Shown one piece after another: positions 10,493-55,902 of a DNA stretch of 64,000 nt. Source of the DNA: an uncultured cyanobacterium (GTDB lineage: Bacteria > Cyanobacteriota > Cyanobacteriia > Phormidesmidales > Phormidesmidaceae). Numbering within the stretch: the first letter of the stretch is position 1; the number at the start of each line of letters is the position of its first letter. A program made the translations under genes and the position numbers. The notes beneath the pieces were generated by a model, which saw only the letters and a list, made by a program, of their open reading frames with translations, had not been told where the DNA came from and did no database searches. Where the stretch lies: positions 704,001 to 768,000 of the forward strand of contig CAWBZI010000001.1 in assembly GCA_963793265.1 (NCBI GenBank). The letters run 5' to 3'.

Positions 10493-10561
10493 CGTTTGGT
10501 TGCTGTCGTCTGGTTATTAGAGTTGAAAGCAGTTTTGGCTCTGAACCAGCTTAAGAGCTTA

Positions 10562-10595: not shown

Positions 10596-10609
10596 CGTGT
10601 TGAGAATTA

Positions 10610-10996: not shown

Positions 10997-11116
10997 ATTG
11001 AGGGTTTAGCAGCGTAAAGTTGCAGCGATACCGTTGATACAAGGCTAAGGGGTTATGCAGGGTTAGGACGCGAAAGCGCCTATTAATTCACGTACTGTAA
11101 CGATTAATATGGAACG

Positions 11117-11692: not shown

Positions 11693-11716
11693 CAAGCGGG
11701 TTTAGCAAGGAATTGC

Positions 11717-32368: not shown

Positions 32369-35026
32369 CTAATCAACCACGGCTCTGAAGCGAATAAGGC
32401 CGTACGAATTTGCCGGAACGCCTTCACCAGTTGCATTTGGAATATCGCTGAGGTCTATAACGATTGCGCCGTTGTCGTTGGGGCCACCGCAGTTGAGGGT
32501 AACACCAGGGAAGGCGGTGCTGGGGTCTACGCCTGTAGGGAAGTAGTAGCCGCCGACGCCATCGTCATTACCGGGTGTGTCTGTGATTTCGTCGCCATCG
32601 TTGACGTTGGTTAGGCCGATAGTAGCACCGTTGAAGTTGAGGAGAATGCCGCGATCACCCCCGCCTGTGAAAGGTGGTGTCAGATCGTTAAAGGCATCGG
32701 TAACGAAGGTGGTGTTGGGGGGAATGCGATCGCAAACCAACACATCCTGCGCCGCCACATCACCATCTGATAAGAATGGAATCGTGTACTCAATCACATC
32801 ACCAGGGGTCACTGTCGTACTGTTATCAGCACCATCTGCGAGCCCAGCGATAAAGCTCTCTACGGTACCGCCGCCAATCGTCGCCGCTGTTGGGGCCCCC
32901 GGCCAGTTCACCGCATTATCCGCGTCATCAGGGGCACCCACATCAACGTAGCTATTGTCAAAAGACTGTTCATTCGCCAGCCCCCGATTAATCGCTGTAA
33001 TTCTCTTTACCAGCAGTAAATTAGGATCGCTTAGCGGTGGCCGGTAGCCAAAGTCAGCATCGTTAAAGTCAATCGAGCCGACTGCTAGCGCTACTGGCAG
33101 CGTTTCGGTTGCTGTAGTCAGCGTCAAATCGGTCAACACATTATTCGTATCAGTCACGTTGATGATGTAGTTGCCAAAAATTAGCTCATCAAAGTCGTAG
33201 CCACCATTCGCGTCTGTTGTTCGCGTTGCCAGCACTGGCTCGCCTGGATCAATCACACCATCGCCATCTAAGTCCCACACCAAGTCAATCGTGACGTTCT
33301 CAATGCCATCTTCACCAGCATCTTGCACACCATCGCCATTCGTGTCATTCCACACAAAGTCGCCAATGCTTGAGGCACCCCGCACACACTCTGCTGCATC
33401 AAAAGAACTATGTGCGCCTAAAGGCCCTACCGTATCTCTTCGAGTGCCCGCTACTTCATTCAAGTCGTTGCCCGATCGCTGCACCTGAAACACATCGTTT
33501 GCACCCAAGGCCCACAGTCTCCCCTGCCCATCCTTTGCAAGCTGCGAGTTCGTCCCAAACGTCTCGTTTAGATCGATAAAGTCGCCGTTGTTCAGGTCGT
33601 AGCTCCAAAAGAACTCGCCGCCGTTACCGTTCGCGGTGATCACGCCCGTATTGTCAATGATGAAGTCGCCCCAGTTTGGGGTATTTGTTAGCGTGCCGTT
33701 TTGTACCAGCCCGTCGATCCCAATCGGCGTCACGCTATCGATCGTTAGCCCGTTCGAGCCCGGCACAAAATCGACCTTGAAGATCTCGAACACGCCGCCA
33801 TCTGAAATATCTGAGCCCTGATACACAGAGCCATTGAAGAAAGCCGCACCACCGCTGGATATGCTCGTTGGCACCGTGCCGCTGTTTATGTAGCTGTTGA
33901 AGTTGTTATCGACAATTACATGCGTATCTGTCAATGGGCTCCAGGCATAAAGCGTATTGCCATCGCCGTAGTACACCTGTCGGTTCACATGGTCGGTCGA
34001 TAGTCCATTCGCGGTCGCTAGCGCGTTATCACTTAGCTGCAAAGAAGCCCCGCTTTCAACGTGCACTGCAAATATCCGAGCGTTCTGCCCCGAATACACT
34101 AAGTTGTAGTCCGCCTCGCACACATTACTGTCGCCAACTGGTGGGAGCGTTGTTGCTAAGGCAATGGGCACGTCTTGGGTAGCACTGGCTTCTTGCCGAT
34201 GCAGCGTAGCATCACCGTTGTTAGGATCGCCTGCGGCTTCTGTTTCTGTTGCAGTCGTTGCAGGCACGTCTACAGCATCACCATCCTGGTTGTCCTGCGT
34301 GTAAACATCGCTGTTGGTTGCCCCACCGCTATAGGCTTGATTGCCTCGATTTCCCGCAGGCGTATCACCCAGTACAACCGTGACCGTATCACCGTCTAAC
34401 AGTCCAGCATTTGCCTTTACCGGTACGCGTACAGTGACCGTGCCGTTCGGTGCAATAGAGCCTTCTGGCAAGCCCAAAGCAGCTCCGGTTGTGACACCGC
34501 CTGTCGGCACGTCTTCAGGTGTTGGCAGCGTTGTTTCACTATTGCCGTCAGTGTCGTAAGCGAGAATTTGAATAGGGCCGCTGAGAGAGCCGTTTGTAAT
34601 CGTGGCATTGTCAGGGATGAAAAACTGAGTAGGGTCGTTACCGATATTGGCGATTTTGAAGGTGAAATACACCACGTCTTCGGTGTTAATCGTGCCGTCG
34701 CCCTGATTTGGCCCTGCGCCAGTGACGCCGCCAGGGGCTTCTGTAGCGCCCGCAGGTGTCACCGTAATGCCCGCAACTTCTAGTACCGTGACTTCAACAA
34801 TATTGGACTCAATGAGTTGAGTGCCGGTAGACGGGTCGGTAAAGCTGCCAGTGGCCTGGTTTTGGATGACGCTGCCAGGGGCCGGGCTGTTGGTGACTGC
34901 GAGCACTAAAGCCGCAGGGAATAAGGCACTCCCGGTTGCTAATACCGACAGCAACACCCTCTGCCAGCCAGTGAGAGAACTCTGGTTATGGGCCGGGTTA
35001 GAAGCGAAAGAAGCGTGCTGAGTCAT
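32369..35026 (-). CDS. Secreted DUF11-family fibre subunit: N-terminal donor strands, Ig, propeller-like region, SdrD B-like, incomplete C-terminal DUF11
   Basis: Signal peptide; PGSVIQNQATGSF..ESNIVEVTV; SIGDFVWNDTNGDGVQDAGE; LLVKRITAIN..PGDVIEYTI..VCDRIP..YGLIRFRAVVD*. Confidence 0.85.
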   Translation of the reverse strand: MTQHASFASNPAHNQSSLTGWQRVLLSVLATGSALFPAALVLAVTNSPAPGSVIQNQATGSFTDPSTGTQLIESNIVEVTVLEVAGITVTPAGATEAPGGVTGAGPNQGDGTINTEDVVYFTFKIANIGNDPTQFFIPDNATITNGSLSGPIQILAYDTDGNSETTLPTPEDVPTGGVTTGAALGLPEGSIAPNGTVTVRVPVKANAGLLDGDTVTVVLGDTPAGNRGNQAYSGGATNSDVYTQDNQDGDAVDVPATTATETEAAGDPNNGDATLHRQEASATQDVPIALATTLPPVGDSNVCEADYNLVYSGQNARIFAVHVESGASLQLSDNALATANGLSTDHVNRQVYYGDGNTLYAWSPLTDTHVIVDNNFNSYINSGTVPTSISSGGAAFFNGSVYQGSDISDGGVFEIFKVDFVPGSNGLTIDSVTPIGIDGLVQNGTLTNTPNWGDFIIDNTGVITANGNGGEFFWSYDLNNGDFIDLNETFGTNSQLAKDGQGRLWALGANDVFQVQRSGNDLNEVAGTRRDTVGPLGAHSSFDAAECVRGASSIGDFVWNDTNGDGVQDAGEDGIENVTIDLVWDLDGDGVIDPGEPVLATRTTDANGGYDFDELIFGNYIINVTDTNNVLTDLTLTTATETLPVALAVGSIDFNDADFGYRPPLSDPNLLLVKRITAINRGLANEQSFDNSYVDVGAPDDADNAVNWPGAPTAATIGGGTVESFIAGLADGADNSTTVTPGDVIEYTIPFLSDGDVAAQDVLVCDRIPPNTTFVTDAFNDLTPPFTGGGDRGILLNFNGATIGLTNVNDGDEITDTPGNDDGVGGYYFPTGVDPSTAFPGVTLNCGGPNDNGAIVIDLSDIPNATGEGVPANSYGLIRFRAVVD

Positions 35027-35077
35027 AGTATATGCAACAAAAATAGATAAGAATAAATAGCTTTATATGAAAGCGCG

Positions 35078-37948
35078 CTACGGCGTGACGCGGGTCTTGA
35101 ACCGAAAGAAGCCGTAGGCGTCATTAGGAGTGCCGGGGCCTGTAGAACCAGGAAATTGAGTTAGGGTTGGCTCGCCCGTACCGCTTGCGCCTGTAAGATC
35201 GATAATGAGCGTGCCGTTGTCGTTAGGCTCTTGTAGGTTACAGGTAGCATCGACCGGGGCGGTGGCGGCGATCAGTTGAGTGCGATCGCTCCCATCATCC
35301 GCCGCCGTCAAGCCCAACACCGGGCTAGTCCCAAGCTGCAACTGCACGTCTACACCGGGGCCATAGGCATCTGTGACAAAAAGCTGATCGGGGAATAGGC
35401 GATCGCACAGCCGCACGTCAGTCACCGCCACCCCACCCGAATTCAAAAAGTAGACCGTATATTCAATCTCATCATTAGGCTGTACGCCGCCTGCATCAAC
35501 AGCACCGACGAGATAGTCAGCAGGCCAGTTAGGATGATTGTCATCAGCGGCCTGCGGCGAACCTGTGTCATCTTCAAACTGACTCAAGTCGGTGCCGTCA
35601 TTTGGATTTATCGCCGCACCATTGACAGCCGTAATTCGCTTAACCATCAAAACTTCTGCCGTCGCTGGTGTTATTACAAGCTGATAGTCTTCTACTTCGC
35701 CATCACTCGCAGCGCCTAGCGATCGCTCATCTACCTCAGCCGTATTTACATCGTCACTTAAGCTATCTGTTGTAAGTCTAAATCGCGCGTAGGTCGTGCC
35801 TCCCATAGCACTAACCGGGACGTCCCAGCTTAAGCTAGCGGTCGTATCACCTGAAGCGACGGTTGCACTTTGATACTCGCCTTCTTCAAACTCGCCGTTT
35901 TGGTCAAAGTCAATCCAGGCATGGAGGATTGCATCTGCCCCTGTCGTGTTGTTGATTGGAATGTTGTTTAGGGGGTATGAAGTGTTGGCGATCGCACCCG
36001 ACAAGCTCGCAAAAGCATCATCTACATCATCAGTTGCATCGCCATTGCTGTCGGTACCATTCCCAAAGCCATCGCTGTCATCTGTTACGCCACCGCCTAA
36101 AAAGAGAGTGCTATCAGTACCGTGCAAAGGCCCGCCGTCACTCGCTAGCGTACGGTAGTTACCAGCGCCACTACCTGCGCCTGTATCAGGCGCATCGCCA
36201 TAGTCCGCCGAGTCAATAATAACGACATCGCCTTCCTCTACCTCACTCGGCGTATATGTCCACAAGTCCAGCGTTTTAGTATCGCCAAAAGCGCCTGTAC
36301 ATTGTTCGTTTGTATTTCCACCGCTGGGTACACCAAATACGTTGAAGCTACCAGAGGAAGAATCAGCACCCGTGAACAGGTTAGTAGCTGGCGGATCAGG
36401 CGGATTAGTGCCACACAAAGCATCATCAGTCGGATCGCCATCGCCTGGATTGCGGTCTTCAACGAGCGTTCCATTCAGCGTAAAGTAGCCCCGATGATCG
36501 TAAAATGCAGTCGTGTTACCGAGTGGATTCGTGCTGTTCAATAGCGTGTAGGTGGGGCCGCCAAAAATATTGTTCTCAGCATCGCTCATCGGAAAGTGAT
36601 ACTCGCCGCCATGAATTTCTATACCGTACTCAAAGCTACCAACCGGGAAAGGTACGCTACTGTTGTCTTGACCATTCCAATCAACAGTTTGAGTACCAGA
36701 GCTGCTCATCACACCTCGTAACACTTTATTTTGAGAATTACCTGGATCAAAATCTACGCCATCTCGGCTAATAACAATTTGATAAACGCCGGGCAAATTA
36801 CTATCAAAAGAGAACGTACCGCCTGTGTTGACGGTAGACGTATTACCCACAACATCGCCCGTAAATGAAGAGTTGCTAGCAACAGGGAAAATAGGTATTG
36901 GTGAGAACCCTACGCCCTCTTCTACACCTGTGATCGGATTATAAACAGGCAAAAATGGTAAAACTGAACTGTCTATTTCATTGAAGAAGATAGGAAACTG
37001 CGGGGGCGCGCTGCTAGTGCCGCCGACCGGATTAGCAATATCGCCATTAGTACCCAGCACGTCGCGGTACAGTGGGGAGGCCCCATCACTATCCAAATTG
37101 CCAAGCTGGTTACCAAAGATCCTAAACCCAAAGGGATCTAGCCCACGCATATCAATTTCATAGCGATAGCCGTCTGCCGTTATCGGGTACAAGTCAGAGT
37201 GCAACTGCCTCCCGTTGTTCCCCATGTTGATGCTCATGAAAAAGGTATGCAGGCGACCTTCAAGATCATCAACAGAGTCGAGCGAGTTGCTGCGTACAGT
37301 CACATCCCAAGCTGATATGCCGGTTGTTTGGTTAGTACCTGTGTTGACCGCTTCAATGTTGCTTTGGATAGTGTTGGTATTAGTATTACTGTTGCTGCCA
37401 CTTGGGCCGTATATCGCTACGTAGTAGATACCTGTGGTCGGGGCCTTATAAAAGCAAGGCCGGTAGCCAGCCACATTGCCAGACCCGTTGATAGATTCTG
37501 GCCCGGCTAGCTCTTCAGCCCGGCTGCTAATAAAGCCCCGTCCGCTCTGGTCAGTGCAGGTAAAATCTGCGGTAGCGGGCAGACTCTCGTTTGCAGCAGT
37601 GCCGGTGACCCTATCAGGATCGAATATTTGAATATTGCCACTACCCACGCCCACGGTGGTAGAGCCTACCAAAATATGCTCCCCTTGCTCGGCATACACC
37701 CGGAATAAAGTGCGATTTTTGAATCCGGCTGAGGTGCCATTACGCCAAACAATATGGCCTCGGTTTCCAGGGGCACCGCTAGGGAACATATCGCGGCTAC
37801 CTTCTGCCTGGGCCGGTTGTATCCAGGCTCCCAAAGCGCACAGCGCAATGGATACGCTACTGGCGAGATAGCACCCTGCTCGCTGCTTAGATATTTCGAA
37901 TTGATCAGCTAAAAACATGGGGAGATCCGTTCGGATAATCGCAGCCAT
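35078..37948 (-). CDS. Secreted adhesin-like protein: N-terminal domain, FlgD-like Ig, GEVED, incomplete C-terminal DUF11
   Basis: AQA-EGS signal cleavage; VDWNGQD; DYGDAPD..AWIDFDQNGEF..GEVEDY; LMVKRITAVN..CDRLFP..YGFFRFKTRVTP*. Confidence 0.85.
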   Translation of the reverse strand: MAAIIRTDLPMFLADQFEISKQRAGCYLASSVSIALCALGAWIQPAQAEGSRDMFPSGAPGNRGHIVWRNGTSAGFKNRTLFRVYAEQGEHILVGSTTVGVGSGNIQIFDPDRVTGTAANESLPATADFTCTDQSGRGFISSRAEELAGPESINGSGNVAGYRPCFYKAPTTGIYYVAIYGPSGSNSNTNTNTIQSNIEAVNTGTNQTTGISAWDVTVRSNSLDSVDDLEGRLHTFFMSINMGNNGRQLHSDLYPITADGYRYEIDMRGLDPFGFRIFGNQLGNLDSDGASPLYRDVLGTNGDIANPVGGTSSAPPQFPIFFNEIDSSVLPFLPVYNPITGVEEGVGFSPIPIFPVASNSSFTGDVVGNTSTVNTGGTFSFDSNLPGVYQIVISRDGVDFDPGNSQNKVLRGVMSSSGTQTVDWNGQDNSSVPFPVGSFEYGIEIHGGEYHFPMSDAENNIFGGPTYTLLNSTNPLGNTTAFYDHRGYFTLNGTLVEDRNPGDGDPTDDALCGTNPPDPPATNLFTGADSSSGSFNVFGVPSGGNTNEQCTGAFGDTKTLDLWTYTPSEVEEGDVVIIDSADYGDAPDTGAGSGAGNYRTLASDGGPLHGTDSTLFLGGGVTDDSDGFGNGTDSNGDATDDVDDAFASLSGAIANTSYPLNNIPINNTTGADAILHAWIDFDQNGEFEEGEYQSATVASGDTTASLSWDVPVSAMGGTTYARFRLTTDSLSDDVNTAEVDERSLGAASDGEVEDYQLVITPATAEVLMVKRITAVNGAAINPNDGTDLSQFEDDTGSPQAADDNHPNWPADYLVGAVDAGGVQPNDEIEYTVYFLNSGGVAVTDVRLCDRLFPDQLFVTDAYGPGVDVQLQLGTSPVLGLTAADDGSDRTQLIAATAPVDATCNLQEPNDNGTLIIDLTGASGTGEPTLTQFPGSTGPGTPNDAYGFFRFKTRVTP

Positions 37949-38008
37949 TAGAGTGCCCGGTTAAATCAAAGAAAGTCGATTTGTGAAAGTGTCGAACCTT
38001 AAGAGTTG

Positions 38009-38047
38009 ACAAAACCCGGCAAAGTGAAAAACTCTGTCGGGTTTTGT
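38009..38047. terminator. Intergenic stem-loop inside the fibre locus
   Basis: ACAAAACCCG..CA / TG.CGGGTTTTGT inverted repeat. Confidence 0.5.
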
Positions 38048-38098
38048 TGCTTTTTGTTTAGGCGATCGCGCCAGTCAAGGCTTCCGAATCAAGTCACT

Positions 38099-39932
38099 CT
38101 AGTCAACTTGAACCGTAAAGCGAATAAACCCATACGAACCCTCAGGCGTTCCAGGCGCAGTGGCATTCGGTAAGTCAGTCGGCACCGTCACATACACACC
38201 ACCGTCAGTATTAGTACCCTGACAAGGCGCAGCAGGTGTAACTGAGTTATCGAAGCTATAGCCCGCATCGTCACCAGTATCAGCATCCGTTAAGGCTGTA
38301 GGTGCAGCGGTACCCTGGCTAATTTGCAAAGAGCCTGCAACATAGGTCGTATTTTCAGGCACTAGGTCACAAAGCAGAACGCTTGCAGCCGTCGTGTTGC
38401 CGTCTGAAAGGAAGTAAATAGTGTAATCAATCTCTTCATTGGGCTCTGCTGCTGCTTCAATATCACCTTGCAGATAGCCACTAGGCCAGTTCACGCTAGC
38501 ATCATCGTCAGGATCAGCAGGATCGTCTACAACAGTTGCGATCGCATCTCCGCCCACACGGGTCACACGCTTCACCAGCTTCACCGCCGGAGCCGCACCT
38601 TCAATCGTAATCTGATAGTCTTCAACTTCACCGTTTGAAGCAGCATCGTCTGGTGTGAGCCCCGTATCAGAGCTATAGCGGAAGCGAGCGTAGGTTTCGC
38701 CTGCAACAGAAGAGAACGGCACTGTGCTCGTAATCGTCACCAAGTTGCCAGTCGGCGCTTCATCAGTCGCTACCTGCTCACCCGGATCGTCAAAATCACC
38801 GTCGCGGTTAAAGTCAATCCATGCGTTCAGCACACCTGTGCCCGCAGTGGTTACATCTAGCTCAAACGTCTCACCCGGCGCAAATGTCTCACCGTGTAGC
38901 GTCGTGCCCGCGCCGCCATCATCTAGCAGCACGCCATCATCTTCAGCCGGGCCATCGTCACCAGCCGTACTTTCAGCATCCACAACCGTCCCCAAGAAAG
39001 TCACGCCATCAACCACGTGGCTAGGTCCATCGGCCTGGCTCTGTTTGATAGTCACCTATACCAGTGGCAGGCGAAATATCAGGCGCATCACCGTAGTCAA
39101 GCTCAGGCTCACCCACGGGCACTGTCAAGGTATCGCTGGCTTCTCGCTCAGTGCTAGGCGATCCGTCAAGGTCACCATTTTCTGTTGCGGTGTTGTCTTG
39201 AGTAACCACATCGCCGTCAGCGCCATATTCACCGCCAGCCGTGAAAGGGACATTCTGATCAGCCGCAGAGGGTGTATTACCCAAAGCAACCGTGATTTCA
39301 TCCGTGCCCGGTACCAGGTCAGAAGCAGCCTTGATAGGAACGCGCACTTCAATAAAGCCATCAACCGGCAAAGAGCCACCGTTGGGCAGTGAGGCAAAGG
39401 TGCCTGACGACGCACCGGCAGCGGGAACAGTCTCGCTAACAGTGGTTGTAGTGGTGCCGTCGCTATAGGCAACAATCTCAATGGGATTGGCCGGATCAAA
39501 CGCACCGTTGTCAACGTCGGAAGGTGCGCCCGGAATGAAGATCTGAGTTTGGTCATTACCGATGTTCGTGATGCGGTAAGTGAAGTACACAACATCTTCT
39601 GAGCTGATGATGCCATCACCCTGGCTTGGGCCTGGATCGTTAACCGTGTTAGGCGCTTCTGATGCGCCTTGAGCGGTTACATCAATACCGGCCACTTCAG
39701 CAACGGTAATGGTAACTGTATTCGACTCAACTGGAATTGCAGTACCCGGATCGGCTGGGCTCTCAAACGAACCGTAGGCGGTGTTGTCAATTTCAGAGCC
39801 CGCAGCCGTGCCTTCAGCTAAAGCTGGCAGCATAAATGTGCTCAGCAAAACAGCGCCGACGAGAGAACGGAAATACTGTTGTTTTCGATTCTTTTTGAGC
39901 TTATTAGAGAGTTTATTAGAGGTAGATTTCAT
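38099..39932 (-). pseudogene. Secreted DUF11/GEVED fibre subunit interrupted by a frameshift at about 39030-39036
   Basis: ATG 39932 (MKSTSNK..), signal peptide, EGTAAGSEIDNTAYGSF..; DYGDAPD..GDYQTEPG continues in another frame as GPSHVVDGVTFLG..GEVEDY..YGFIRFTVQVD*, matching the intact paralogue at 35078-37948. Confidence 0.8.
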
Positions 39933-40086
39933 GGTGTTAGCGTCTGAGAAGGTTGTTAAGTGATTGAGCAAAAAGATCCACAGGAGGAGTGGAGGGCAAC
40001 AGCCTTGAGATTTGAAATTGAGAAGGCCAATAATTTCAAACGTCAAGGTTGTTGTATTGTTTGTTAGTTCGAGTAAGTCAACTGGT

Positions 40087-43701: not shown

Positions 43702-43809
43702 GAATCAAAAGAGATTTCTGAATTTAGTAGAAGTCAGTAGCAAAAAGAACATATATAGCTAGTTGTTCCCGTTTTAGCTACAAACACATCAACAAGTGTT
43801 GTTACGTTT

Positions 43810-45954: not shown

Positions 45955-45974
45955 CTGTTTTTACTGAGACGGGT

Positions 45975-48900
45975 TTATAGGTCAGTTGCCGTTGGATAGG
46001 TTTCGTTTGTAGGCATTGCCGAAGAGGTTTCCGAAGAAGTTGCCGCAGAAGTCGTCGAAGAATCTGCTTGAACGCTTTCGTCACCAGACTCTTGAGAAAC
46101 TTGAATAACAGACTCTTCTTGCTGAACAGGTGCAGCAGGCTGTGTGCCAAAGCCATTCAACAAACCGCTGAGCTTAGCCGTCATCCCAAAGTAAAAGCCG
46201 CCCGCGCTCCGATTCTCACCGAAGTCGGTATCGTTAGCGCCGCCGCTATAGCCCGCCGAAACGCGCAGGTCAGGCAGCGGATAGTAGCCGCCTTCAAGCG
46301 AGTAGCCGGTTTCATTAAAGCCACTGCCGCCAATCCAGCGCACTTCGCCCACCGTATCCCAGCGATAGCCCAAGCGATAGGTTGCTCTGGCCTGTGCAAG
46401 CTGTACGGTGCTGCCGCTAGAAAAGCTGTTGTCAGAAACGTTCAGCGAACTGCGGCTGTGGCGTAGCGCATACTTTCCGTATAGCTCCCATCGCCAGTTA
46501 GGCGCATAGATACCTTCAGCCGAAAAGACATGATCCTGCGTTTCCGAATTAGTCCCAGAAAGAGAGTTTGTCGGAATCGAATTAGGGTTCATCCGGTGCT
46601 CGTAGCGCAACAGCCCGTTAAAGCGGTCGTCTTTAGGATTGCGGTAGGCCATACCCAGCTTAAGAATGCTAGTGGTGCCCAAACCTGTGATTCGTTGATT
46701 AGCTGCACGCGCCGCTCGATAATCTCCTAATAGCGTTATGGAAGGCGTGACTCGACCCAGTGCAGAGAGCGTGAATACTGTGTTAGACGTGCCCCGATTG
46801 GAGCTGCGGTGCTCGAAGCGAGTACTGGCCTGAAAATCTGGATTGTCGGTGTAAGAAAGGCCCACGCTGTAACTTTCGCCGCCTGCCAAGCCCAACGCCG
46901 CCGCTCTGTTGCCAGTCGCGAACGGTTGAGCAAACTGCGTACTCGCAGCGGTTTCATTACCTAGCGTAGAGAAGACTTTCTCATAACCCAAATCCAAATC
47001 TAAGCCAGGCGCTAAGTTAATGCCCTGCTCTAAGCCAATCGTGCCGCCAATCTGACGACCGTCTACCGTAGAGAATCGACCGCGAATGGTGGTATCTGAA
47101 GCGAAAGTATGATCTCCAGTGACATCGATACTGGTTGCGTTGCCGCGGCTGTTGCCGCCACCGCCATAAAAGACTTGGTTAGCGCTGATGTTGAGCCAGG
47201 GCATTACTTCCCAGTTCAGACCAATCAGCGTACGGCTAGGGTAGATAGGATCTACGTTAGAAGAGAGGTTAAGTTCGTTTTGGGCGACTAGACTAAGCTT
47301 GCGAGTGATGGGCGTGGTTAAGCGAGTTCTGAGCTGGTCAGAAGAGATTGATCGGTCGCTGTTGATGCGGTCTGTGCGATCGCGATGCAGCCAGTCTATT
47401 TCTGCCGTCGCTCGGCCCAATCGCTGACTTAACCCTATTGAATAGGTCGTCAGCGAATTATCTAGAGGTGCACCCGGCTCGGTATTTAGGCCCAACAACA
47501 GATCAGAGACATCGGTGATGACCCGAGGCGCATTACCTGTATTATCTTCATGATCGTAGCGGGCTCTGAGTGAAGTATTGCGCCCCAAACGTCCTGTCAC
47601 CTGAGCGCCATAGCGGGTTTGCCCTGGCACAAAGCTCGTCGTCGCAGTATTCGTAAAGCCCGCATCCGTAGAGCGGTAATAGGCTCGACCGCTAAGCGCC
47701 GTGCCTAAGCTACCGTCAAACGAAATCCGATAGCCCGTGCCGTTGACCTCATCGGTACCCGAAAAATCGCTTGAAGACTGCGCAATTTCAGCAATCACCT
47801 GAGCATTCTGGCCTAAGGCAATGCGAGCGTCCGCGCCATAAAGCGTAAAGTCGCGAGTGCCCTGGTCTTCGGTAAAGTAGCTCGCCCCCACCCAAGACTC
47901 TACGCCCTGCTGCTGATTGAGGTTGTATTGCAAGCGTCCCGCTAAGATGTCGGTGTCGTCACCGTCTTCGTGCTGGTAAGTTGCAACAATCCGACGAACC
48001 AACAACAGTCCATAATCATCAACAGCGGTGCGAGTCACCGGATCGTTGAAGAGAATCGTGCCTCGGTCGTAGTCAATCTCGTAGTCAGCACCACGATAGA
48101 GAGGCTTGCGCTCTAACACCGTACCGGGCCGTTCGAGTTCTTCAAGTTCTATATAGACATTTTCACTACCGGGCAACAGATTGCGCTCAGATGTAAAGTA
48201 GAAGCCGCTCGTACCGTCAGGCACAATCGTATCTCTTTGGAAGCCTTCTACGTTGTTAGCGTATAGGCCCGTAACGGCTAAGTTGCCGAAGTTGTAGTTA
48301 GATTTGAAGCCGTGAAGCTGGCGGCTTGTGGCGGTAAAAAGCTGAGAAGAGGTAGCAAATTCAGACGTGCTGAAGTCGCCCCACATGGCGTAGTCAATAG
48401 CTCTATCGTTGCTGGGCGAGTTGCGCTCTAGTCGTAAGTAAACGCTGTCGAGAGAAGGCGCGAGCGTATCGGTGTAAGAGTCGTCGCCGTAGGTTGTATA
48501 GCTGCTGCAATCGCTGCCAGTGCCCGATCGAAAGAGCGTTGTTTCGCCACGACAGTTTTCGTTGAGGGTGCGATCGCTGTTATAAGCCCCCGTATAAAGC
48601 CACTCGCCCAAATTACCCGTTGCAAACACCGCCGCGTCTACATCAAACTCATAGCTGTTGTCGCCATCTTCAGGTAAAAAGTCTCGGAAGCTGTCGTAAA
48701 AGTCGGTGCCGCGTGCGCCCACTCGGATGTCAATTACACCCGAAATTAAGCTAGGTCTTTGCGGGGTTTCAAACTGCACCTGGCTAAAGGCATCGAACCC
48801 GTTAGCATTTGCCTGAATCTGCACCAGATGAGATTCGAGCGAAGATTGCAGCTCAGCAGCGAACTCACCGCGCCGAATTTCTACCTGATAGCCCGGCATA

Positions 48901-50471
48901 TCTGGGTCTTGATCAGCACCGATAAACTGACCGTCGCTCGTGCGCAGCGTGGCCACCGAATCCCAGCGAGAGATGTTGCCAATCTCATCGACGAGCTGGC
49001 CGCGAATCGTCGCCGTAGAGCGACCGTCAGAAGGAATCGACTGGGGAGAGAGCAACACCAGTTTTTCAGGCAAGCCTCGCACCGTCAGCGGCAAGCTTTG
49101 GAGAACGTCACCCGTTTCTGTTGAAATAACTTCTAGAACGTTCTCACCTGACACCAGGGGAACGCCGTACCAGGTTTGCGTACGAAGCTGAGTCACTGGG
49201 TCGGTTTCTGTTCTACCCACTAAGCTCGAATCAACCACATGGCCGTTCGTCAGCAGAGCGATATTTGCGCCAGTCGGGAAGCGCAGCACAACAGAAGTGG
49301 CCGGAATATCCAGGAAAGCGCCTGCTTCAGGGCTTAAAAACTCAATGTCACTGGCGTCTGCTGAGACGGCAATTTCATCACCAGTCGCTAAGTCAGCAGG
49401 CGTAATTGATATCTGTTGAATACCGTTAATATCGTAGCTAGCAACGCCCGGTGTGAACGTAGAGTCGATGATGGCAATATCGTCGCTATCAGCTTCTATC
49501 AGCTCGCGTGGCGTGAGCGAAATCCAGGCAGCGGGACGTTTAGCAGCCTCACGTCTTGGTAGGTTGACAGCGAGGCGAGGCGCGTTTGGATTCTCTTGTA
49601 TCTGGCCGTTGTCGTCCACCATGAGACGACGCGCTAGCCAGGGCGTTTTCTTTTCGTCATCGTCTTCAGCCTCTAGGCCAAGCGCAATCCGAAGCTCATC
49701 CCGTTTTTCTTCCGCTTCGTCTGTCGCTTCAGGCGCGAGGGCAATTTGAGGCGCGAGAGTTTGTAGAGGTGCGATCGCTTCTACAGCTTCCGTTTCAATT
49801 GACGTCTCAAAACCCGGCAGTGTCGTTGCTAACCATGGAGTTTTCTTTTGCTCAGCCTGCGGGGCTTCAGGCGTAGCGATCGCAATCAAAGGCGCAATCG
49901 TATTAAAGTCTTGCTTCTCTGGGGGGGGGGCGATCACGATCAAAGGCGATTCCTTAAGTAAAAGCGCCTGATTTTCTGTTTCTTCCTCTTCCTCTTCTTC
50001 AATCCCTTCCTCAGGAGAGAGAGATAATAGTGCTGGTTCAGTGTTTGCTGCTGTGAGGTCTACTGTAGGCTCATTGCTGGCTTCTGAAGAATCTACAGCA
50101 ATGAGGGGGAAGTCGTTTTGAGCAGATTGAGCGATCACACTCTCTTCTGCAAACGCTTGGGCCAGCAAAGGAGCCGTCGGTTCATAATTATCGGCAACCA
50201 CCGTCTCCGACTCAATCCAGGGAACATCCCACTGTACCGCGCGAGTTTTTAGCTCAACGCCAGGCGCGATCGCCTCTAAAGACTCAGCCTCATCAACAGG
50301 ATCTATCGGGGTGTCTAACCCCTGTACGGCCTCAGCAGATTGAGCATTAGCAGCGCTAGGCAGCAGCCCCAAACTCGCTAGCACACTTACAGCAAGCCCA
50401 GACTTCAGACCAGCAGGACAGTTTGAGAGCAGTCTAAAGAGCAACAGTTTATCTTTTGAAGTTTTAGACAT
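45975..50471 (-). CDS. Large outer-membrane beta-barrel protein (putative translocon/usher)
   Basis: Signal peptide; acidic disordered N-terminus; invasin-like Ig (PSDGRSTATI..LVDE.GN); GADYEIDYDRGTILF; long C-terminal run of amphipathic strands with aromatic ends. Confidence 0.75.
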   Translation of the reverse strand: MSKTSKDKLLLFRLLSNCPAGLKSGLAVSVLASLGLLPSAANAQSAEAVQGLDTPIDPVDEAESLEAIAPGVELKTRAVQWDVPWIESETVVADNYEPTAPLLAQAFAEESVIAQSAQNDFPLIAVDSSEASNEPTVDLTAANTEPALLSLSPEEGIEEEEEEETENQALLLKESPLIVIAPPPEKQDFNTIAPLIAIATPEAPQAEQKKTPWLATTLPGFETSIETEAVEAIAPLQTLAPQIALAPEATDEAEEKRDELRIALGLEAEDDDEKKTPWLARRLMVDDNGQIQENPNAPRLAVNLPRREAAKRPAAWISLTPRELIEADSDDIAIIDSTFTPGVASYDINGIQQISITPADLATGDEIAVSADASDIEFLSPEAGAFLDIPATSVVLRFPTGANIALLTNGHVVDSSLVGRTETDPVTQLRTQTWYGVPLVSGENVLEVISTETGDVLQSLPLTVRGLPEKLVLLSPQSIPSDGRSTATIRGQLVDEIGNISRWDSVATLRTSDGQFIGADQDPDMPGYQVEIRRGEFAAELQSSLESHLVQIQANANGFDAFSQVQFETPQRPSLISGVIDIRVGARGTDFYDSFRDFLPEDGDNSYEFDVDAAVFATGNLGEWLYTGAYNSDRTLNENCRGETTLFRSGTGSDCSSYTTYGDDSYTDTLAPSLDSVYLRLERNSPSNDRAIDYAMWGDFSTSEFATSSQLFTATSRQLHGFKSNYNFGNLAVTGLYANNVEGFQRDTIVPDGTSGFYFTSERNLLPGSENVYIELEELERPGTVLERKPLYRGADYEIDYDRGTILFNDPVTRTAVDDYGLLLVRRIVATYQHEDGDDTDILAGRLQYNLNQQQGVESWVGASYFTEDQGTRDFTLYGADARIALGQNAQVIAEIAQSSSDFSGTDEVNGTGYRISFDGSLGTALSGRAYYRSTDAGFTNTATTSFVPGQTRYGAQVTGRLGRNTSLRARYDHEDNTGNAPRVITDVSDLLLGLNTEPGAPLDNSLTTYSIGLSQRLGRATAEIDWLHRDRTDRINSDRSISSDQLRTRLTTPITRKLSLVAQNELNLSSNVDPIYPSRTLIGLNWEVMPWLNISANQVFYGGGGNSRGNATSIDVTGDHTFASDTTIRGRFSTVDGRQIGGTIGLEQGINLAPGLDLDLGYEKVFSTLGNETAASTQFAQPFATGNRAAALGLAGGESYSVGLSYTDNPDFQASTRFEHRSSNRGTSNTVFTLSALGRVTPSITLLGDYRAARAANQRITGLGTTSILKLGMAYRNPKDDRFNGLLRYEHRMNPNSIPTNSLSGTNSETQDHVFSAEGIYAPNWRWELYGKYALRHSRSSLNVSDNSFSSGSTVQLAQARATYRLGYRWDTVGEVRWIGGSGFNETGYSLEGGYYPLPDLRVSAGYSGGANDTDFGENRSAGGFYFGMTAKLSGLLNGFGTQPAAPVQQEESVIQVSQESGDESVQADSSTTSAATSSETSSAMPTNETYPTATDL
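49921..49930 (+). repeat. G10 homopolymer (C10 on the coding strand) within the barrel gene
   Basis: Ten consecutive G; encodes APPP, currently in frame. Confidence 0.85.
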
Positions 50472-50473
50472 GA

Positions 50474-51976
50474 TTAGTTTTGCTCCTCCTGGAAAGTGGG
50501 CGTTACCCCAAAGTTCATGCGCACGAGCCCGCCGGGAGCAAGATTAACCAGTCGAGAATGACTGTTGCGTTCGTTAAAGCGAAGGTTTGGGGCGAGCGTG
50601 TAGCCCGGTAAGCTACTCAGATCAATAGTGCCGGTACGCTGTCCAGGCAGCATTTTTTGAACAGAATAAAGGCCGTCCGCATCAGTAACCACTCGGTTAC
50701 CGTCATCTAAGAATATGACCGCGTTTGGAATACCCGCCTCACCCGGCTGCTGCTCGCCATCAAAGTTTTTATCTTCAAAAACGCGACCGATGAGCGTACC
50801 GCAGTCAGAGAGAATACCAGGGTCAAGCGTTAGTTGATGAGAGCTTGGCCCGTCTTGAACCCTAAAGCCGCTATCTGTTCTTTCGGCAGTAACCTCAGCG
50901 CTGTTACGGCCCGACCCTCTTAGCGCATCTGGCGTCAGCCGCACACCGTAGATAATATCTAGCGTACGATCAGCAGGCAGCACATCAGGCACCCTAAAGC
51001 TTACTGTTCGATTATTGATATCAGCAACAACCGGAACAACATCACCGTCTACTTGGCCCGTCACTGACTCTGGCAACAGCTCGAAACCAAGCGGTAGCGT
51101 ATCTACTGCAACAATTGAATCGATACCAGCTCTAGCCAAGTTTTGAATATTTAACCGATAGAGAACAATATCTCCAGGCTGAGCCGCAGAGCGGTCGGCT
51201 GATTTGGTGATTCTGACCTGCTCAGATTCGCAAATAACAGAGCTTAAACCAAATTCAAAGAAGGTTAAGAACTGAACGGCTGCGTTGCGAACTTCAACCC
51301 GGCGCGTGAGTTCGGTAGCACCATCAACTGAGATAGGCTGACCGTCTAAAGATGTCGCTCGGTAGCTAAGTGTTGCTGTATTATTTGCAGTATCTTCTGC
51401 AATGCCTTGCAGTTCAATTCGAATACGTCTCTCGCCAAAAGAAGAGTCATCTGGTGGATTGATAACCAGGATATATTGAGCACCTGCGTCGGTCTGGCTT
51501 AGCCCAGCGTTAATTGGGCTAGTGAGCTGAACAGACGAATCGAATAAGAAATTGTAACGACCTTCATTCGGTAAGAAGGGAAAGGGATTAACGTTGCTCT
51601 CGTTGGGTGGAATGCTGTCGGTACCGCTAGTAGGCGTAAGAGATACCAAATTTCCTAAATCTAAACCGCTAGCATCGGGTTCGTAGAGCGCACTCGAAAA
51701 GCCAACATAGCTAGGAAGCGGTTCGCCATTGCAGCCTAAAAGATCGCCGCCTGGGTCGATTAATACTGGGTCTAGGCCAGTGATAATTTGGTTAGAGGTA
51801 ATGCCAACGGGGCCGTTGCCAGTGGTGTAGGTAGCCGTCGCTTCGTTAAGAATATCAGGTAGCTGCGCGTAGGCACCGGTGATTGGGTGGCTCAAGAGGC
51901 CAACTAAAACGAGGGCCATCAAACGCTGCCAGCGGCGGGAGCGTCGAAACCATTTAGGTGTGGAAAAAATTGGCAT
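50474..51976 (-). CDS. Secreted DUF11 + SdrD B-like protein
   Basis: Signal peptide; ILNEATATY..TSN; VRITKSADRS.AQPGDIVLY..VDTLP..GRNSA; GRVFEDKNFDGEQQPGE.GI; 2-nt gap to the barrel gene. Confidence 0.85.
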   Translation of the reverse strand: MPIFSTPKWFRRSRRWQRLMALVLVGLLSHPITGAYAQLPDILNEATATYTTGNGPVGITSNQIITGLDPVLIDPGGDLLGCNGEPLPSYVGFSSALYEPDASGLDLGNLVSLTPTSGTDSIPPNESNVNPFPFLPNEGRYNFLFDSSVQLTSPINAGLSQTDAGAQYILVINPPDDSSFGERRIRIELQGIAEDTANNTATLSYRATSLDGQPISVDGATELTRRVEVRNAAVQFLTFFEFGLSSVICESEQVRITKSADRSAAQPGDIVLYRLNIQNLARAGIDSIVAVDTLPLGFELLPESVTGQVDGDVVPVVADINNRTVSFRVPDVLPADRTLDIIYGVRLTPDALRGSGRNSAEVTAERTDSGFRVQDGPSSHQLTLDPGILSDCGTLIGRVFEDKNFDGEQQPGEAGIPNAVIFLDDGNRVVTDADGLYSVQKMLPGQRTGTIDLSSLPGYTLAPNLRFNERNSHSRLVNLAPGGLVRMNFGVTPTFQEEQN

Positions 51977-52131
51977 TGTATCTCGTTCAAATGGCTTTTT
52001 AAGGGCTCAGATATTTGTGATAGAAATAGTGTTTAGGAGGCTCCTATGGCGCTGAAGGTTACTGTGACCTGTCAGGGAAGGAAATATTGAGCAAGAATAT
52101 TGAATAGTTTGATTAGAAAAAGAGAAAGAGA

Positions 52132-52170
52132 AGGGCGATCGCACTCCTTTAAAAGAACTGCGATCGCCCT
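52132..52170 (-). terminator. Intrinsic terminator built from two HIP1 sites, after the first two locus genes
   Basis: AGGGCGATCGCA / TGCGATCGCCCT inverted repeat followed on the minus strand by a U/C-rich tract. Confidence 0.7.
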
Positions 52171-52185
52171 ATTCATCTACCGTGA

Positions 52186-52749
52186 CTACTTAACCGTCAC
52201 TTCATGAGAAACGTTAACAGCAACAGAGCTACCCAGCGCTTCGTTAAAGTTCCATTTCACGTGAGTGTAAGCAGAAGCAGGCGCAGGCTGCATCTCAACA
52301 GTGCCATCAGGCAAAGTAACTTCGACCATAGGCTCAGCTACAAAAGTCGCACCACCGTCGATGCTGTAAGTCGCATCAGCCGCAGTATTACCCTTCTCAG
52401 AACCAATGACATAAGTCATCGCAGCAGGAATAGGCTGAGTAATCACGAGATTTTCAGCAGGCAGTTCGCCAGCGTTAGAAGAAACGACCGCGTAGCGTAG
52501 CTTATCACCAGGCTGTACAGCCGCTTCGCCCTCTAGCTTTTGCCATTCAGCTTTCTCGGTACCGTCAGCATCGACGACAGTCATCTCTTTTTCAACGCCC
52601 ATTTCGAGCTTTACTTCAGGGCGAGTGAGGCGCTGTGCGATCGCCGCGCCCGCTTCTTGAATGCTCGCAAACACAGGTGTGCTCACTGCAAAAGGCGCAG
52701 AGGCCACCAAAGCTGCAACACCCAAACCAAACATGAACTTACGTTTCAT
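52186..52749 (-). CDS. Small secreted single-domain DUF11-like protein
   Basis: Signal peptide; VQPGDKLRY..NAG..AENLVITQPIPAAMTYV..YSIDGG..YTHVKW..VSHEVTVK*. Confidence 0.88.
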   Translation of the reverse strand: MKRKFMFGLGVAALVASAPFAVSTPVFASIQEAGAAIAQRLTRPEVKLEMGVEKEMTVVDADGTEKAEWQKLEGEAAVQPGDKLRYAVVSSNAGELPAENLVITQPIPAAMTYVIGSEKGNTAADATYSIDGGATFVAEPMVEVTLPDGTVEMQPAPASAYTHVKWNFNEALGSSVAVNVSHEVTVK

Positions 52750-52869
52750 AATTTATTGAACCTTATAGAAAGTGTGACTGTGAATCTTTTGAAAGCAACA
52801 AATCAAATCGATTGAGAGAAGCCAGGCACAAGTTCTTTTAGCGCGCCCAGCTTCAGCTCATATCATCGA

Positions 52870-55365
52870 TTAGTTAACAGAACGACGAATAACGAAGGTA
52901 CCCGATGCGCCCGGTGCAACAGAAGGCACTTCGTTTTCATACTTCTCAGCAGGCGTGCCATCAACAGGATCGGTTGGGCTAGTTGCCGCAGGCGTAGTAT
53001 CAGCGCTGGTTGAGAAGTAGCGGATTTCGCCGTTATCAGCCGTCGCACCAGAGCGGTGGCTAGTAAACTCAGCCCAGTTGTTAGTCCCTGCGTTACCGTC
53101 CTCAAGAATTAGGAAGTCGTTAGCGGTGAGCGTAACGCTGCCTGCACCTGTTGCAGACTGAGAGATGTTCTGGTAAGTGAGACGGTACTCAATGGTTTCA
53201 CCCGGCGCAGCATTTGCAGTAGGTGTTGCAGTGAATGCTTCGCGAACAGAGCCATCAGCAGCCAGAATTTGAGCTTCCTTCATCAGCATCATGAAGCCGG
53301 TGTATACGCGGTCGATGGTGATGTTGTTAGTTGTCTCACCTGTGTAGCCAGGCGATACGACAGGATCGTCGTCAGGGAAGGCAACGATAGGAATCGCGAC
53401 GTCTTCTAGCTGAGTAACGCCGTCGGGCAGGTCTACTTCAACGGTGTAGTCAACAGAATTACCTGCGGCGACATCGCCAACGTTAACAGGCGCATCAGGC
53501 GTTGTGAACGTTGTACCGTCGTAAGTGTATACGGCGGTGTTAGTGCCATCGCTGATAGTAACAATTGTGCCGACAGGAATATCGCCATCAACACCATACG
53601 CACCAGGCTGACCACCCGCAGCTTCAGCTTCAGTAGGCGACAGTGGCTCGATAGTGGTTTCAGCAATAAAGCCAATGCCAGCAGGGTTACTCACCGTGTT
53701 GTTGAAGGTAACCGCATCAGGGTCAAACGGCGTGGCAGGGTCTAAACCAGCCGGAACAGGTGTAGACAAGTTGGTGAAGTCGTCGTTGTCGTTGGTTGGG
53801 CCAATGGCATTAGGCGCACCGTCTGGGCCAGTAAGAATATCGTCAGTCGTTGGCGTAATCGAAACAACGTTGAGTTCACCGTCGTCGCCTGTACCTGAGT
53901 TGTCGTTGTTGTTGTCAACCAGGCTTGGATCATCAGGCTGGTTGTCGCCGTCGCCATCAGTTTCAGGTGCAATACCGTCATCTGTGCCAGGTACGTAATC
54001 GCTACCGTCAGCGGCAGGAGGATTACCTGCGTCGTCGTAGTTGTTAGGATTGGCGTCACCTGATTCATCGTAGATAATCTGAGGGTCAGGATCGGTGTCG
54101 CCAGCGGTTTGACCAAAGACCTGTGCGATGTTTTCGATGGTACCGCCCGTTTCAGGCAAGCCGCTGGTAACCACTGTGAAGGTTAGACCAGTGACCGTAG
54201 AGCCTACGTTGAGCGTACCAGCATTAACAAAACCAATGCGAGTAACTGTGCTCAAGTCAGTAGGCTGCGCAGTTTGCCATGCAAGCGTTAGCGGGTCAGA
54301 CCCTGCGTCCGCACCAGCCGGATCAACAGAATAGACAGGCGACCAACCATTAGGCAGGTTACTGCCTACAGAAGATAGGGTTGTCTGTGCTGGAATAGCA
54401 TCAGAAACCAGAATGCGATTCGCTGTAGCACCGTCTAGGGTAATGTCAGTGCCATCAAGTGCGGCTGCATTGAAGAGGCCAGCAGGGTCTAAATCTTCTA
54501 CACGCACGCCTAAGTCATAGGCGATAGTGTCATCGGTCGGATCGGCAGGAACACCAGCGTTAGCAATGCTAGACGTTTTGAGAACAGTCGCCAAAGCGAG
54601 GGCGTCGTCAGAACCGGCAAAGATAAGAGAGCTGTTGTCTTGTGCCTCACGCTCACCGTTTTCAGGTGCTTCAGGGCCAACATTCTCAGTGCGAACATCG
54701 TCAAGATTAGCGCCGCCGTCATCGTTATCTGACTGGTTTTGCTCTTCATCGACGCCTTCAACCGTGGGGTTGTCGGTGGTGTTACCTAGCTCGACTACTA
54801 TCAAATCGCCTGCAACAGTGCCAGCAGCAGGCGTACCTGTCACTCTTACTCTAAAGCTTTCATCTGGGTCGATTGGATCTCCACCCAAGCCAACAATAGT
54901 ACCGCCTTCTGCAGGAACCGTCCCAATCAAGACACCGTCTGAGTCAAAGACTTGTACAGGGTCAGTATCAGAAGGTGTGAAGTTGTCAGTTCTAATATTG
55001 TCAATGCCAGGAACGAAGACATCGGTTACTGCATTACCAATGTTAGTCACTTCAAAGTCATAAAAGAGGGTATCACCCGCTTCGACCGCGCCGCCATCTT
55101 CATCAATAGGAGGCTGAGCGCTTACGGTCAAGCCTGCAATTTCAGCAACTTTGATGACCACTGTATTAGAAGTGGTATCGAAGTCATTACCGTTACCGTC
55201 GTTGTAGGTCGCGGTTGCGGTGTTGCTGATGTCCGTTCCGGCATCAGTGCCTTCCGCCACAACAGCGCCGACCATATTGAACACGCCAGCAACTGCTAGA
55301 GTAGCAGCGAGAAGAGGCTTGTGAGCCTGCCAGCGAAATTTTTTCTGTTGTACTGTTTTTGCCAT
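52870..55365 (-). CDS. Secreted Asp/Thr/Gly-rich DUF11-family protein, putative major fibre subunit
   Basis: ATG 55365 (MAKTVQQKK..), signal peptide, EGTDAGTDISNTATATY..SNTVVIKV; several Ig-like domains; LMKEA..PGETIEYRLTYQN..SGTFVIRRSVN*. Confidence 0.87.
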   Translation of the reverse strand: MAKTVQQKKFRWQAHKPLLAATLAVAGVFNMVGAVVAEGTDAGTDISNTATATYNDGNGNDFDTTSNTVVIKVAEIAGLTVSAQPPIDEDGGAVEAGDTLFYDFEVTNIGNAVTDVFVPGIDNIRTDNFTPSDTDPVQVFDSDGVLIGTVPAEGGTIVGLGGDPIDPDESFRVRVTGTPAAGTVAGDLIVVELGNTTDNPTVEGVDEEQNQSDNDDGGANLDDVRTENVGPEAPENGEREAQDNSSLIFAGSDDALALATVLKTSSIANAGVPADPTDDTIAYDLGVRVEDLDPAGLFNAAALDGTDITLDGATANRILVSDAIPAQTTLSSVGSNLPNGWSPVYSVDPAGADAGSDPLTLAWQTAQPTDLSTVTRIGFVNAGTLNVGSTVTGLTFTVVTSGLPETGGTIENIAQVFGQTAGDTDPDPQIIYDESGDANPNNYDDAGNPPAADGSDYVPGTDDGIAPETDGDGDNQPDDPSLVDNNNDNSGTGDDGELNVVSITPTTDDILTGPDGAPNAIGPTNDNDDFTNLSTPVPAGLDPATPFDPDAVTFNNTVSNPAGIGFIAETTIEPLSPTEAEAAGGQPGAYGVDGDIPVGTIVTISDGTNTAVYTYDGTTFTTPDAPVNVGDVAAGNSVDYTVEVDLPDGVTQLEDVAIPIVAFPDDDPVVSPGYTGETTNNITIDRVYTGFMMLMKEAQILAADGSVREAFTATPTANAAPGETIEYRLTYQNISQSATGAGSVTLTANDFLILEDGNAGTNNWAEFTSHRSGATADNGEIRYFSTSADTTPAATSPTDPVDGTPAEKYENEVPSVAPGASGTFVIRRSVN

Positions 55366-55875: not shown

Positions 55876-55902
55876 AACCACCTGATATCAAATCAGGTGG
55901 TT
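55876..55902 (-). terminator. Intrinsic terminator of the GAF pseudo-kinase gene
   Basis: AACCACCTGAT / ATCAGGTGGTT inverted repeat with a T-run on the minus strand. Confidence 0.7.

Follow-up and report, generated by a model that had tools for sequence, protein, structure and literature searches.

In the chaperone–usher pathway, Sec-exported subunits with an unfinished immunoglobulin-like (Ig-like) fold are each completed by an N-terminal element of the next subunit, and the usher itself is a barrel of 24 strands. The locus discussed here lies in a stretch of 64,000 nucleotides (nt) from an uncultured cyanobacterium of the Phormidesmidaceae (contig CAWBZI010000001.1, positions 704,001 to 768,000), referred to as the window throughout. 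It comprises nine minus-strand genes, designated g1 to g9 in order of transcription, between positions 32369 and 55365 of the window. The best reading of this locus is a new diderm fibre pathway that works like chaperone–usher pili without being homologous to them. More specifically, we estimate a probability of about two in three that its products are exported by Sec and build a surface fibre anchored in the outer membrane, in which a split CnaA-like (DUF11/CLIPPER-type) domain is complemented in trans. The nine co-oriented open reading frames (ORFs) reported in an initial annotation were all found, with intergenic gaps of 2 to 209 nt. The signal peptides it had noted on every protein were agreed with by eye from the N-terminal sequences, rather than by a predictor, and its domain make-up for g1 to g9 matches Pfam and NCBIfam calls on the nine proteins.

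The initial annotation also saw in the gene order a parallel to chaperone–usher operons built from different parts, and this idea has gained substance. As in those operons, the locus encodes an outer-membrane barrel and no ATPase, and it is predicted to contain a tip protein without a donor and a last subunit without an acceptor. The principle that a fold is completed by the next subunit is predicted here from a sequence pattern, a complex model that supports docking, and a census of related loci. The parts differ throughout. There is no Usher or PapD homologue in the locus, and the Usher family (PF00577) has 0 matches in the organism's own genome, with an Escherichia coli control positive. 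As donor, a two-strand hairpin from a CnaA-like domain takes the place of the single strand of a pilin fold, and the joint is probably covalent. With about 40 strands, the barrel is larger, and in most phyla the barrel protein itself bears a donor hairpin. Finally, the small protein g2 is acceptor-like and not strand-donating; in Pfam and NCBIfam it matches no PapD-like chaperone, only a DUF11 core. Type 1, P and Csu/CupE pili, as treated in the accessible parts of PMC10673952 and PMC12122975, represent the pathway with which this comparison is made.

Covalent locking of a donated strand has precedents outside the diderms. For BsaA of Clostridium perfringens, a member of the TasA family, 'donor-strand exchange and lock' is described in the part of PMC11580942 that was available: the N-terminal segment inserts into the sheet of the next subunit, N35, E56 and K74, divided between the two subunits, take part in a spontaneous intermolecular isopeptide bond, and mutants lose oligomers. 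The likeness lies in the Asn–acid–Lys set that, in g1, is split over two subunits according to sequence and model; unlike this locus, BsaA is Gram-positive, has a TasA fold, depends on SipW and comes without an outer-membrane barrel. No TasA-type family was matched among the locus proteins in Pfam or NCBIfam, and the fold of g2 is CnaA-like instead. Donor-strand complementation together with inter-subunit isopeptides is also reported, in excerpts of the relevant papers, for threads of Sulfolobus acidocaldarius (10.1101/2022.04.26.489512, PMC9715654). These archaeal threads are formed without an outer membrane and from a different subunit family.

Sortase pili (SpaA, RrgB, BcpA) and CLIPPER/DUF11 domains share with the locus the CnaA-like fold and the Lys–acid–Asn chemistry. 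In sortase pili, the isopeptide is intramolecular and the subunits are joined by sortase at LPXTG motifs, unlike the split domain found here. The claim of the initial annotation that sortase, LPxTG, lipobox and RTX elements are missing is borne out with one exception. The organism's own genome (98.97% complete) has no Sortase family match, and the locus proteins carry no C-terminal LPXTG, no lipobox pattern in their first 60 residues, no GGxGxD repeat and no C-terminal PEP motif. The exception is an internal LPETG in g1 (54061–54075; residue 435 of its longest ORF), which lies inside the DUF7925 domain, varies among homologues and looks like chance. In the laboratory-made SpyTag/SpyCatcher pairs, derived from CnaB-type domains, a peptide with one reactive residue docks into the remaining domain and bonds spontaneously; the present case would be a natural, CnaA-like split used for polymerisation. 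The lack of a lipobox also sets the locus apart from the type V pili of Bacteroidota. The cyanobacterial tubular (CT) pilus of Microcystis was considered and rejected as the same system, given the different small pilin and gene set described in the accessible part of PMC12397347.

Donor hairpins and acceptor tails

In g1, g3, g7 and g9, a stretch of about 35 residues directly follows the signal peptide, and a complete domain comes next. This stretch has the motif I-x-N-x-A-x-x-Y, a turn, and S-N-x-V-x-x-x-V, and resembles the final two strands of a DUF11/CnaA-like domain when set against the complete DUF11 domain inside g6. That internal domain covers profile positions 1–112 of 114. The tails of g1, g6, g7, g8 and g9 are DUF11-like too, and cover only positions ~10–61; they stop right after the strand that precedes the hairpin in a complete DUF11 domain. 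These tails keep the Lys and the acid residue and end before the Asn-bearing hairpin, so that the intramolecular DUF11/CLIPPER triad (Lys, Asp and Asn in one chain) is not found in them. In a Pfam scan, DUF11 was not matched by any of the four donor peptides, which at 45 residues are too short; their likeness to the end of DUF11 therefore rests on the reading against the g6 domain and on the complex model described below.

The two halves are distributed unevenly over the locus (all positions refer to the minus strand). The putative shaft subunit g1 (52870–55365) has 831 amino acids (aa) when counted from the ATG common to its homologues; its longest ORF extends to 55461 and has 863 aa. It carries both a donor hairpin (55141–55254, residues 38–75; 46.3 bits with a hidden Markov model (HMM) of the donor) and an acceptor domain (52873–53304, residues 688–831) that ends after the pre-hairpin strand. 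Both halves are also present in two adaptor-type subunits, for which, as for g3, the donor is called from N-terminal sequence and the donor HMM. These are the GEVED protein g7 (38099–39932, two ORFs in the window; donor 39681–39815, C-terminal acceptor 38102–38596) and the SdrD_B protein g9 (32369–35026, 885 aa; donor 34763–34897, C-terminal acceptor 32372–33028). The tip-adhesin candidates g6 (40087–43701, 1204 aa; DUF11 and a weak DUF6923 match) and g8 (35078–37948, 956 aa; GEVED) have a C-terminal acceptor (40090–40608 and 35081–35662, respectively) and no donor hairpin. The reverse holds for g3 (50474–51976, 500 aa), which resembles an anchor: its donor hairpin (51767–51865) is followed by an uncharacterised middle part, a complete DUF11 domain and SdrD_B, with no acceptor. 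Since the tip proteins and g2 have no donor and g3 has no acceptor, pairing is expected to occur in trans.

The DUF7925 match of g1 has an E-value of 5.4e-59, and a homologue search gave 554 matches; from the best 120, which were listed, 39 were picked and aligned with g1 of the window (n = 40). Invariant in all 40 sequences are N48, Y54, S66 and N67 of the hairpin, and K696, E755, N762 and W764 of the tail. The predicted layout thus resembles 'exchange and lock', with the Asn on the donor (N67), and the Lys and acid on the acceptor (K696, E755). Equally invariant are K263, D322 and N412 in the internal DUF7925 domain, which correspond to the intramolecular triad of the seed Q8YS00. In the consulted portion of PMC12617251, the only full-text source found for DUF7925, a Nostoc protein serves as the basis for defining this family as one of isopeptide domains, with an intramolecular bond. 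Of 15 cyanobacterial adhesin tails, 14 retain the Lys and 14 the Asp of a 'CD' motif; proteobacterial g1-like and tip proteins have, by eye, the same Lys and an 'IND' Asp.

A complex of the g1 tail (688–831) with the g1 hairpin (38–80), modelled with alignment rows on both sides, gave ipSAE scores of 0.86, 0.86 and 0.84; the best of three controls reached 0.01. Among solved complexes, 116 of 157 reach the ipSAE mark, compared with 2 of 215 mismatched pairs; these counts apply only roughly here, since the alignment was self-made. Contacts agree between the runs to at least 96%, and the partner has a predicted local distance difference test score (pLDDT) of at least 81. In the model, strand 748–754 pairs with residues 50–55, K696 contacts S66, N67 and V69, and the pLDDT of the acceptor is 89–90 with the hairpin versus 73–75 in the controls. 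The model supports binding of the g1 hairpin to the g1 tail domain. The joint is probably locked by an isopeptide bond between K696 and N67, and complementation of g1 would take place in trans.

Recurrence of the gene set in other genomes

The barrel part of g4 is present in 55 of 401 sampled genomes of Cyanobacteriota, five of which belong to another class (27–31% identity). DUF7925 occurs in 41 of the 401, all of them barrel-positive, and in none of the 346 barrel-negative genomes; it sits a few kb from the barrel. Ten loci were fetched, selected so as to have long contigs and to cover a range of families. Six have g1-g2-g3-g4 followed by one or more adhesins, two (G264 and G047) have a short form in which g4 and g5 are accompanied by a small g3-like donor protein and a single adhesin with an acceptor at its end, and two from the distant class have related, rearranged sets. 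The conserved core consists of g1, g2, g3 and g4, with the adhesins after it.

Outside this phylum, the barrel belongs to a longer protein. Searching 1.84 billion representatives gave 1557 matches at E ≤ 0.001, 1196 at 1e-10 and 211 at 1e-30; the distant relatives have 1000–2900 aa and carry the barrel C-terminally. With a profile built from 21 distant barrels, 478 proteins were found at E ≤ 1e-10. Those listed mostly have DUF11, SdrD_B and CarboxypepD_reg ahead of the barrel, and a few have OmpA or DUF7925. The small number with a named source belong to Acidobacteriota, Oligosphaeraceae, Betaproteobacteria, Nevskia and Coraliomargarita. With DUF11 and SdrD_B domains before the barrel in a single chain, these proteins amount to g3::g4 fusions. 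Inspected by eye, 11 of the N-termini of 12 long fusion proteins open with a donor-like hairpin.

A scan of species-representative genomes with a six-sequence barrel alignment found at least 568 stretches that encode barrel relatives, 80 of which were kept. Most are from Burkholderiales (Variovorax paradoxus, V. boronicumulans, Xenophilus, Pseudacidovorax and Polaromonas), and others from Gallionella, Usitatibacter, Crenothrix, Methylomonas, Nevskia, Nitrospira, Entotheonella, Verrucomicrobiota, Acidobacteriaceae and Desulfuromonadales. Loci with this gene set are known from Cyanobacteriota, Pseudomonadota, Verrucomicrobiota, Nitrospira and Acidobacteriota, and the genes are currently annotated only as 'DUF11', 'hypothetical' or, mistakenly, 'TonB-dependent receptor'.

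Synteny was recorded for the 61 kept loci with at least 4.5 kb of upstream DNA. In 55 of them, the gene immediately upstream of the barrel gene encodes 700–1300 aa with both a donor and a strand-end motif, and a g2-like gene precedes this g1-like gene in all but one of these (54 of 55). A downstream ORF of at least 800 aa is present in 54 of the 61; the donor motif occurs in none of these 54, and 24 of the 33 that are complete end in the strand motif. Conservation of gene order, on which the initial annotation had made its proposal depend, thus extends from six of the ten cyanobacterial loci to most of the loci elsewhere. The barrel ORFs match a strict regular expression for the donor in 16 of 61 cases, with variant hairpins visible by eye in the N-termini; the donor HMM matches 52 of 64 complete barrel ORFs within their first 450 residues. 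Of its 120 matches of at least 15 bits, 117 lie within the first 200 residues of an ORF.

The census bears on one alternative, namely that the hairpins of g1, g7 and g9 fold into the tail of their own chain, and that monomeric adhesins leave through g4 and form no polymer. Isopeptide domains can indeed be assembled from two distant segments, as for SpaA residues 291–384 and 588–598 in the part of PMC12617251 that was seen, and the complex model is silent on cis versus trans. Such nesting would leave without a partner the acceptor-only proteins g6 and g8, the tips in 54 of 61 loci, the donor-only g3 and the barrel fusions, and the short systems hold just one donor protein and one acceptor protein. 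This alternative is therefore unlikely, and trans-complementation remains the preferred reading.

The barrel, an OmpA protein and a small DUF11-like protein

The 1498-aa protein g4 (45975–50471) is arranged as a signal peptide, an acidic low-complexity region, one or more Ig-like domains and the barrel (46122–49049, residues 475–1450). Pfam and NCBIfam assign it to no family at E up to 0.01, autotransporter and intimin-type barrels included, and a sequence search of the PDB returned nothing relevant (one match, E 0.87). An AlphaFold2 model of residues 475–1450 (pLDDT 80.3; predicted template modelling score 0.73) is all-beta, with an Ig-like start, ~38–40 long strands and a small beta insert. 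Its Foldseek matches are generic (TMq ≤ 0.22) and include SlpA, SprA, LptD, MtrB, TonB-dependent transporters and FimD/PapC, the last two weakly (TMq ~0.2). The gene is single-copy in its own genome. Some homologues have Invasin_D3 or Big_1 Ig domains ahead of the barrel, and a protein atlas holds look-alike clusters of ~850 aa, mostly from Pseudomonadota, which serve as a lead only. The low-complexity region (49500–50350, residues ~45–330) is acidic and rich in Pro and Ala, contains 'KKTPWLA' twice, and is very variable in length among homologues, which have 1129–1693 aa.

In having an N-terminal passenger and a C-terminal barrel, the g3::g4 fusions of other phyla resemble autotransporters, and the size of the g4 barrel is in the range of SprA from type IX secretion. 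No autotransporter, intimin or type IX family is matched, and TM-scores are ~0.2 or less. For type IX secretion, there is no Por_Secre_tail match, the SprA match is weak (8gl6, E 2.4e-7, TMq 0.18), and PorE appears only through the OmpA domain it shares with g5.

In a second alternative, the hairpin, the C-terminal Ig-like domain, or both would be sorting tags for a g4 translocon, with the cargo being released or displayed singly. The very large barrel, with SprA among its fold matches, the terminal Ig-like module common to all cargo-like proteins, and analogues such as the type IX C-terminal domain and the TPS domain of two-partner secretion agree with this. A mere tag could dispense with invariance of the tail's Lys and acid and of the hairpin's Asn, and need not be exactly the part that another module lacks. 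Moreover, the barrel protein itself bears the hairpin in other phyla, and Pfam finds no Por_Secre_tail or other secretion family. Sorting signals are thus about as improbable an explanation as nested domains. Less probable still is an envelope scaffold, in which a SlpA-like g4 would, together with g5, connect the outer membrane with the wall, and the DUF11 proteins would make up a surface layer instead of fibres. The top fold match of g4 is indeed the trimeric SlpA of Deinococcus (8ae1, E 1.4e-10, TMq 0.20), and g5 has an OmpA domain; against this, TM-scores this low are generic among large barrels, the patchy presence in 55 of 401 genomes is unfit for an essential envelope part, and the cargo is adhesin-like (GEVED, SdrD_B, giant variable tips). 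Finally, a TonB-dependent receptor beside unrelated adhesin genes can be dismissed as highly improbable, even if the NCBI pipeline gives such names to 34 of the 120 homologues listed and TonB-dependent transporters are among the weak fold matches, because g4 has no Plug or TonB_dep_Rec match in Pfam (E up to 0.01), its model exceeds by far the 22 strands of such receptors, and it is tightly linked to and fused with DUF11 proteins across phyla.

As part of a fibre pathway, g4 would be both export pore and anchor. Next to it, g5 (43810–45954, 714 aa) consists of a beta-helix/NosD part, Big_6, a Pro-rich linker and an OmpA domain, the type of which suggests that g5 may bind peptidoglycan. In other loci, too, OmpA genes or OmpA fusions adjoin the barrel; some genomes have the OmpA domain at the C-terminus of the barrel protein, in place of a separate g5-like gene (L014 of G131, 7050–12476 of the joined locus; P0407, P0459, P0485).

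The 187-aa protein g2 (52186–52749) is a single CnaA-like/DUF11-like domain without a donor hairpin, and is modelled confidently (pLDDT 91.4). Foldseek gave no match to the model at E ≤ 0.001. A wider structural search retrieved CnaA-like domains of Gram-positive adhesins and pilins as well as CLIPPER, at middling Z-scores of 8.1–9.3: AgI/II (9.3), PrgB (9.2), CLIPPER 9ifr (8.7; root-mean-square deviation 2.1, 91 residues aligned), BcpA and RrgB. An alignment of 36 g2 sequences drawn from several phyla has K, R, H or L where the isopeptide Lys would be, and mostly L or Q at the position of the catalytic Asp; g2 therefore looks like an acceptor-type domain that cannot catalyse the bond. In four of four barrel-positive, DUF7925-negative genomes, the g2 profile finds DUF11-core fragments only, compared with a full match (E 4.5e-38) in the control genome G260. 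As g2 is missing where DUF7925 is missing, it accompanies g1, and both are dispensable to the system. Most likely, g2 would hold or cap the g1 donor hairpins before assembly.

Proposed assembly and its significance

Combining these elements, assembly may be envisaged as follows. Subunits with signal peptides would cross the inner membrane via Sec, and an acceptor-only tip adhesin, g6 or g8, would be the first to enter the g4 pore. The mature N-terminal hairpin of the next subunit would then complete the tail domain of the previous one, a step for which the model provides support in the case of the g1–g1 pair only. A Lys–Asn bond would form with the help of the neighbouring acid; by making the step irreversible, it could drive export without ATP. 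Behind the tip would come the adaptors g7 and g9 as well as g1, in one copy or many; g1 could repeat the polymerising step because it has both halves. The donor-only g3 would close the chain and tie it to the g4 barrel; elsewhere, as the fusions suggest, the N-terminus of the barrel protein would itself end the chain. The complex might be pinned to peptidoglycan by g5. The weakest step concerns g2, which could keep the g1 hairpins from reacting early, or cap them.

Several points weigh against this reading. All the evidence is computational, and the system is known here from genes and models alone. The donor and strand-end motifs were defined within this analysis itself; the strand-end motif is loose, matching 103 of 524 ORFs of at least 300 aa, and nine of the 33 complete downstream ORFs are without it. 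The donor HMM was seeded from N-terminal matches to a regular expression, which makes its evidence partly circular, and it missed 12 of the 64 barrel ORFs, in which variant hairpins are seen by eye. The genome counts include related genomes and are not independent. The complex model covers the g1 tail and g1 hairpin alone; for g1 it does not distinguish cis from trans, it gives no bond geometry, and it may score well because hairpin and domain together make up a familiar, intact CnaA-like fold. The role of g4 as export channel is pure deduction, the best fold match having a TM-score of ~0.2, and the confident fold of g2 on its own lends no support to an open groove. The broader proposal of a new, phylum-spanning class of diderm pili, polymerising by hairpin insertion with neither a chaperone–usher pair nor a sortase, with a spontaneous Lys–Asn isopeptide lock akin to SpyTag/SpyCatcher, a covalent tie of the fibre to the barrel as pore and anchor, and g2 as a reversed-logic chaperone that holds hairpins, is more tentative, at slightly less than even odds. 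No description of the gene set or of a split DUF11 domain was found in full-text literature; further papers or supplementary files may hold one.

Of the four adhesin-like proteins in the initial annotation, all (g6 to g9) are modular as claimed, and one, g7, is broken in the window. Its frameshift lies near 39029, inside the motif that precedes the GEVED domain. One extra base at 39029 is lacking in near-identical contigs from three runs of two studies; without it, the frame is open over 610 aa, so that the break is either an assembly error or a strain variant. The runs without the extra base are macroalgae and sediment metagenomes, and the best-matching run may be the source of the window itself. 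The N-terminal domain of g8 resembles that of g6, which is found in unnamed clusters only in the protein atlas.

Upstream of g1, a strong terminator-like hairpin (55876–55902, minus strand; an 11-pair stem followed by a T run) closes a gene for a GAF-HisKA protein (55947–57539, minus strand), from which it follows that the locus has its own start. No kinase ATPase domain was detected in this protein. A divergent gene close to g1 (57674–59749, plus strand) encodes a Ser/Thr protein kinase with a long Pro-rich tail; the two proteins are possible regulators of the locus. Directly 3' of g9, a WD40 protein (28638–32264, minus strand; 1208 aa) has 13 repeats and an N-terminal NTPase-like part. Its gene shows a 126-nt tandem periodicity at 29666–30330 and, apart from one short array, contains the only tandem repeats of the window. 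Further away, a 690-aa protein (22136–24208) and a 288-aa multi-pass membrane protein (27757–28623), both on the minus strand, belong to no Pfam family. No Rfam family was matched on the window.

Fibre pathways of double-membraned bacteria are few (chaperone–usher, type IV, curli and type V), each of them a landmark, and the locus points to another. The system is carried by cultivable and partly tractable bacteria, namely Variovorax paradoxus, V. boronicumulans, Xenophilus, Acaryochloris, Moorena and Nostoc-type cyanobacteria. Should the joint prove to be covalent, this would show that pili with covalent links are made by diderms as well, a question that has been raised for isopeptide domains in the part of PMC12617251 that was available. 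If true, the proposed mechanism would provide a natural, orthogonal set of protein-ligation pairs and a new, very large single-chain barrel for studies of outer-membrane export, and would account for the giant, swappable adhesins on many environmental bacteria.

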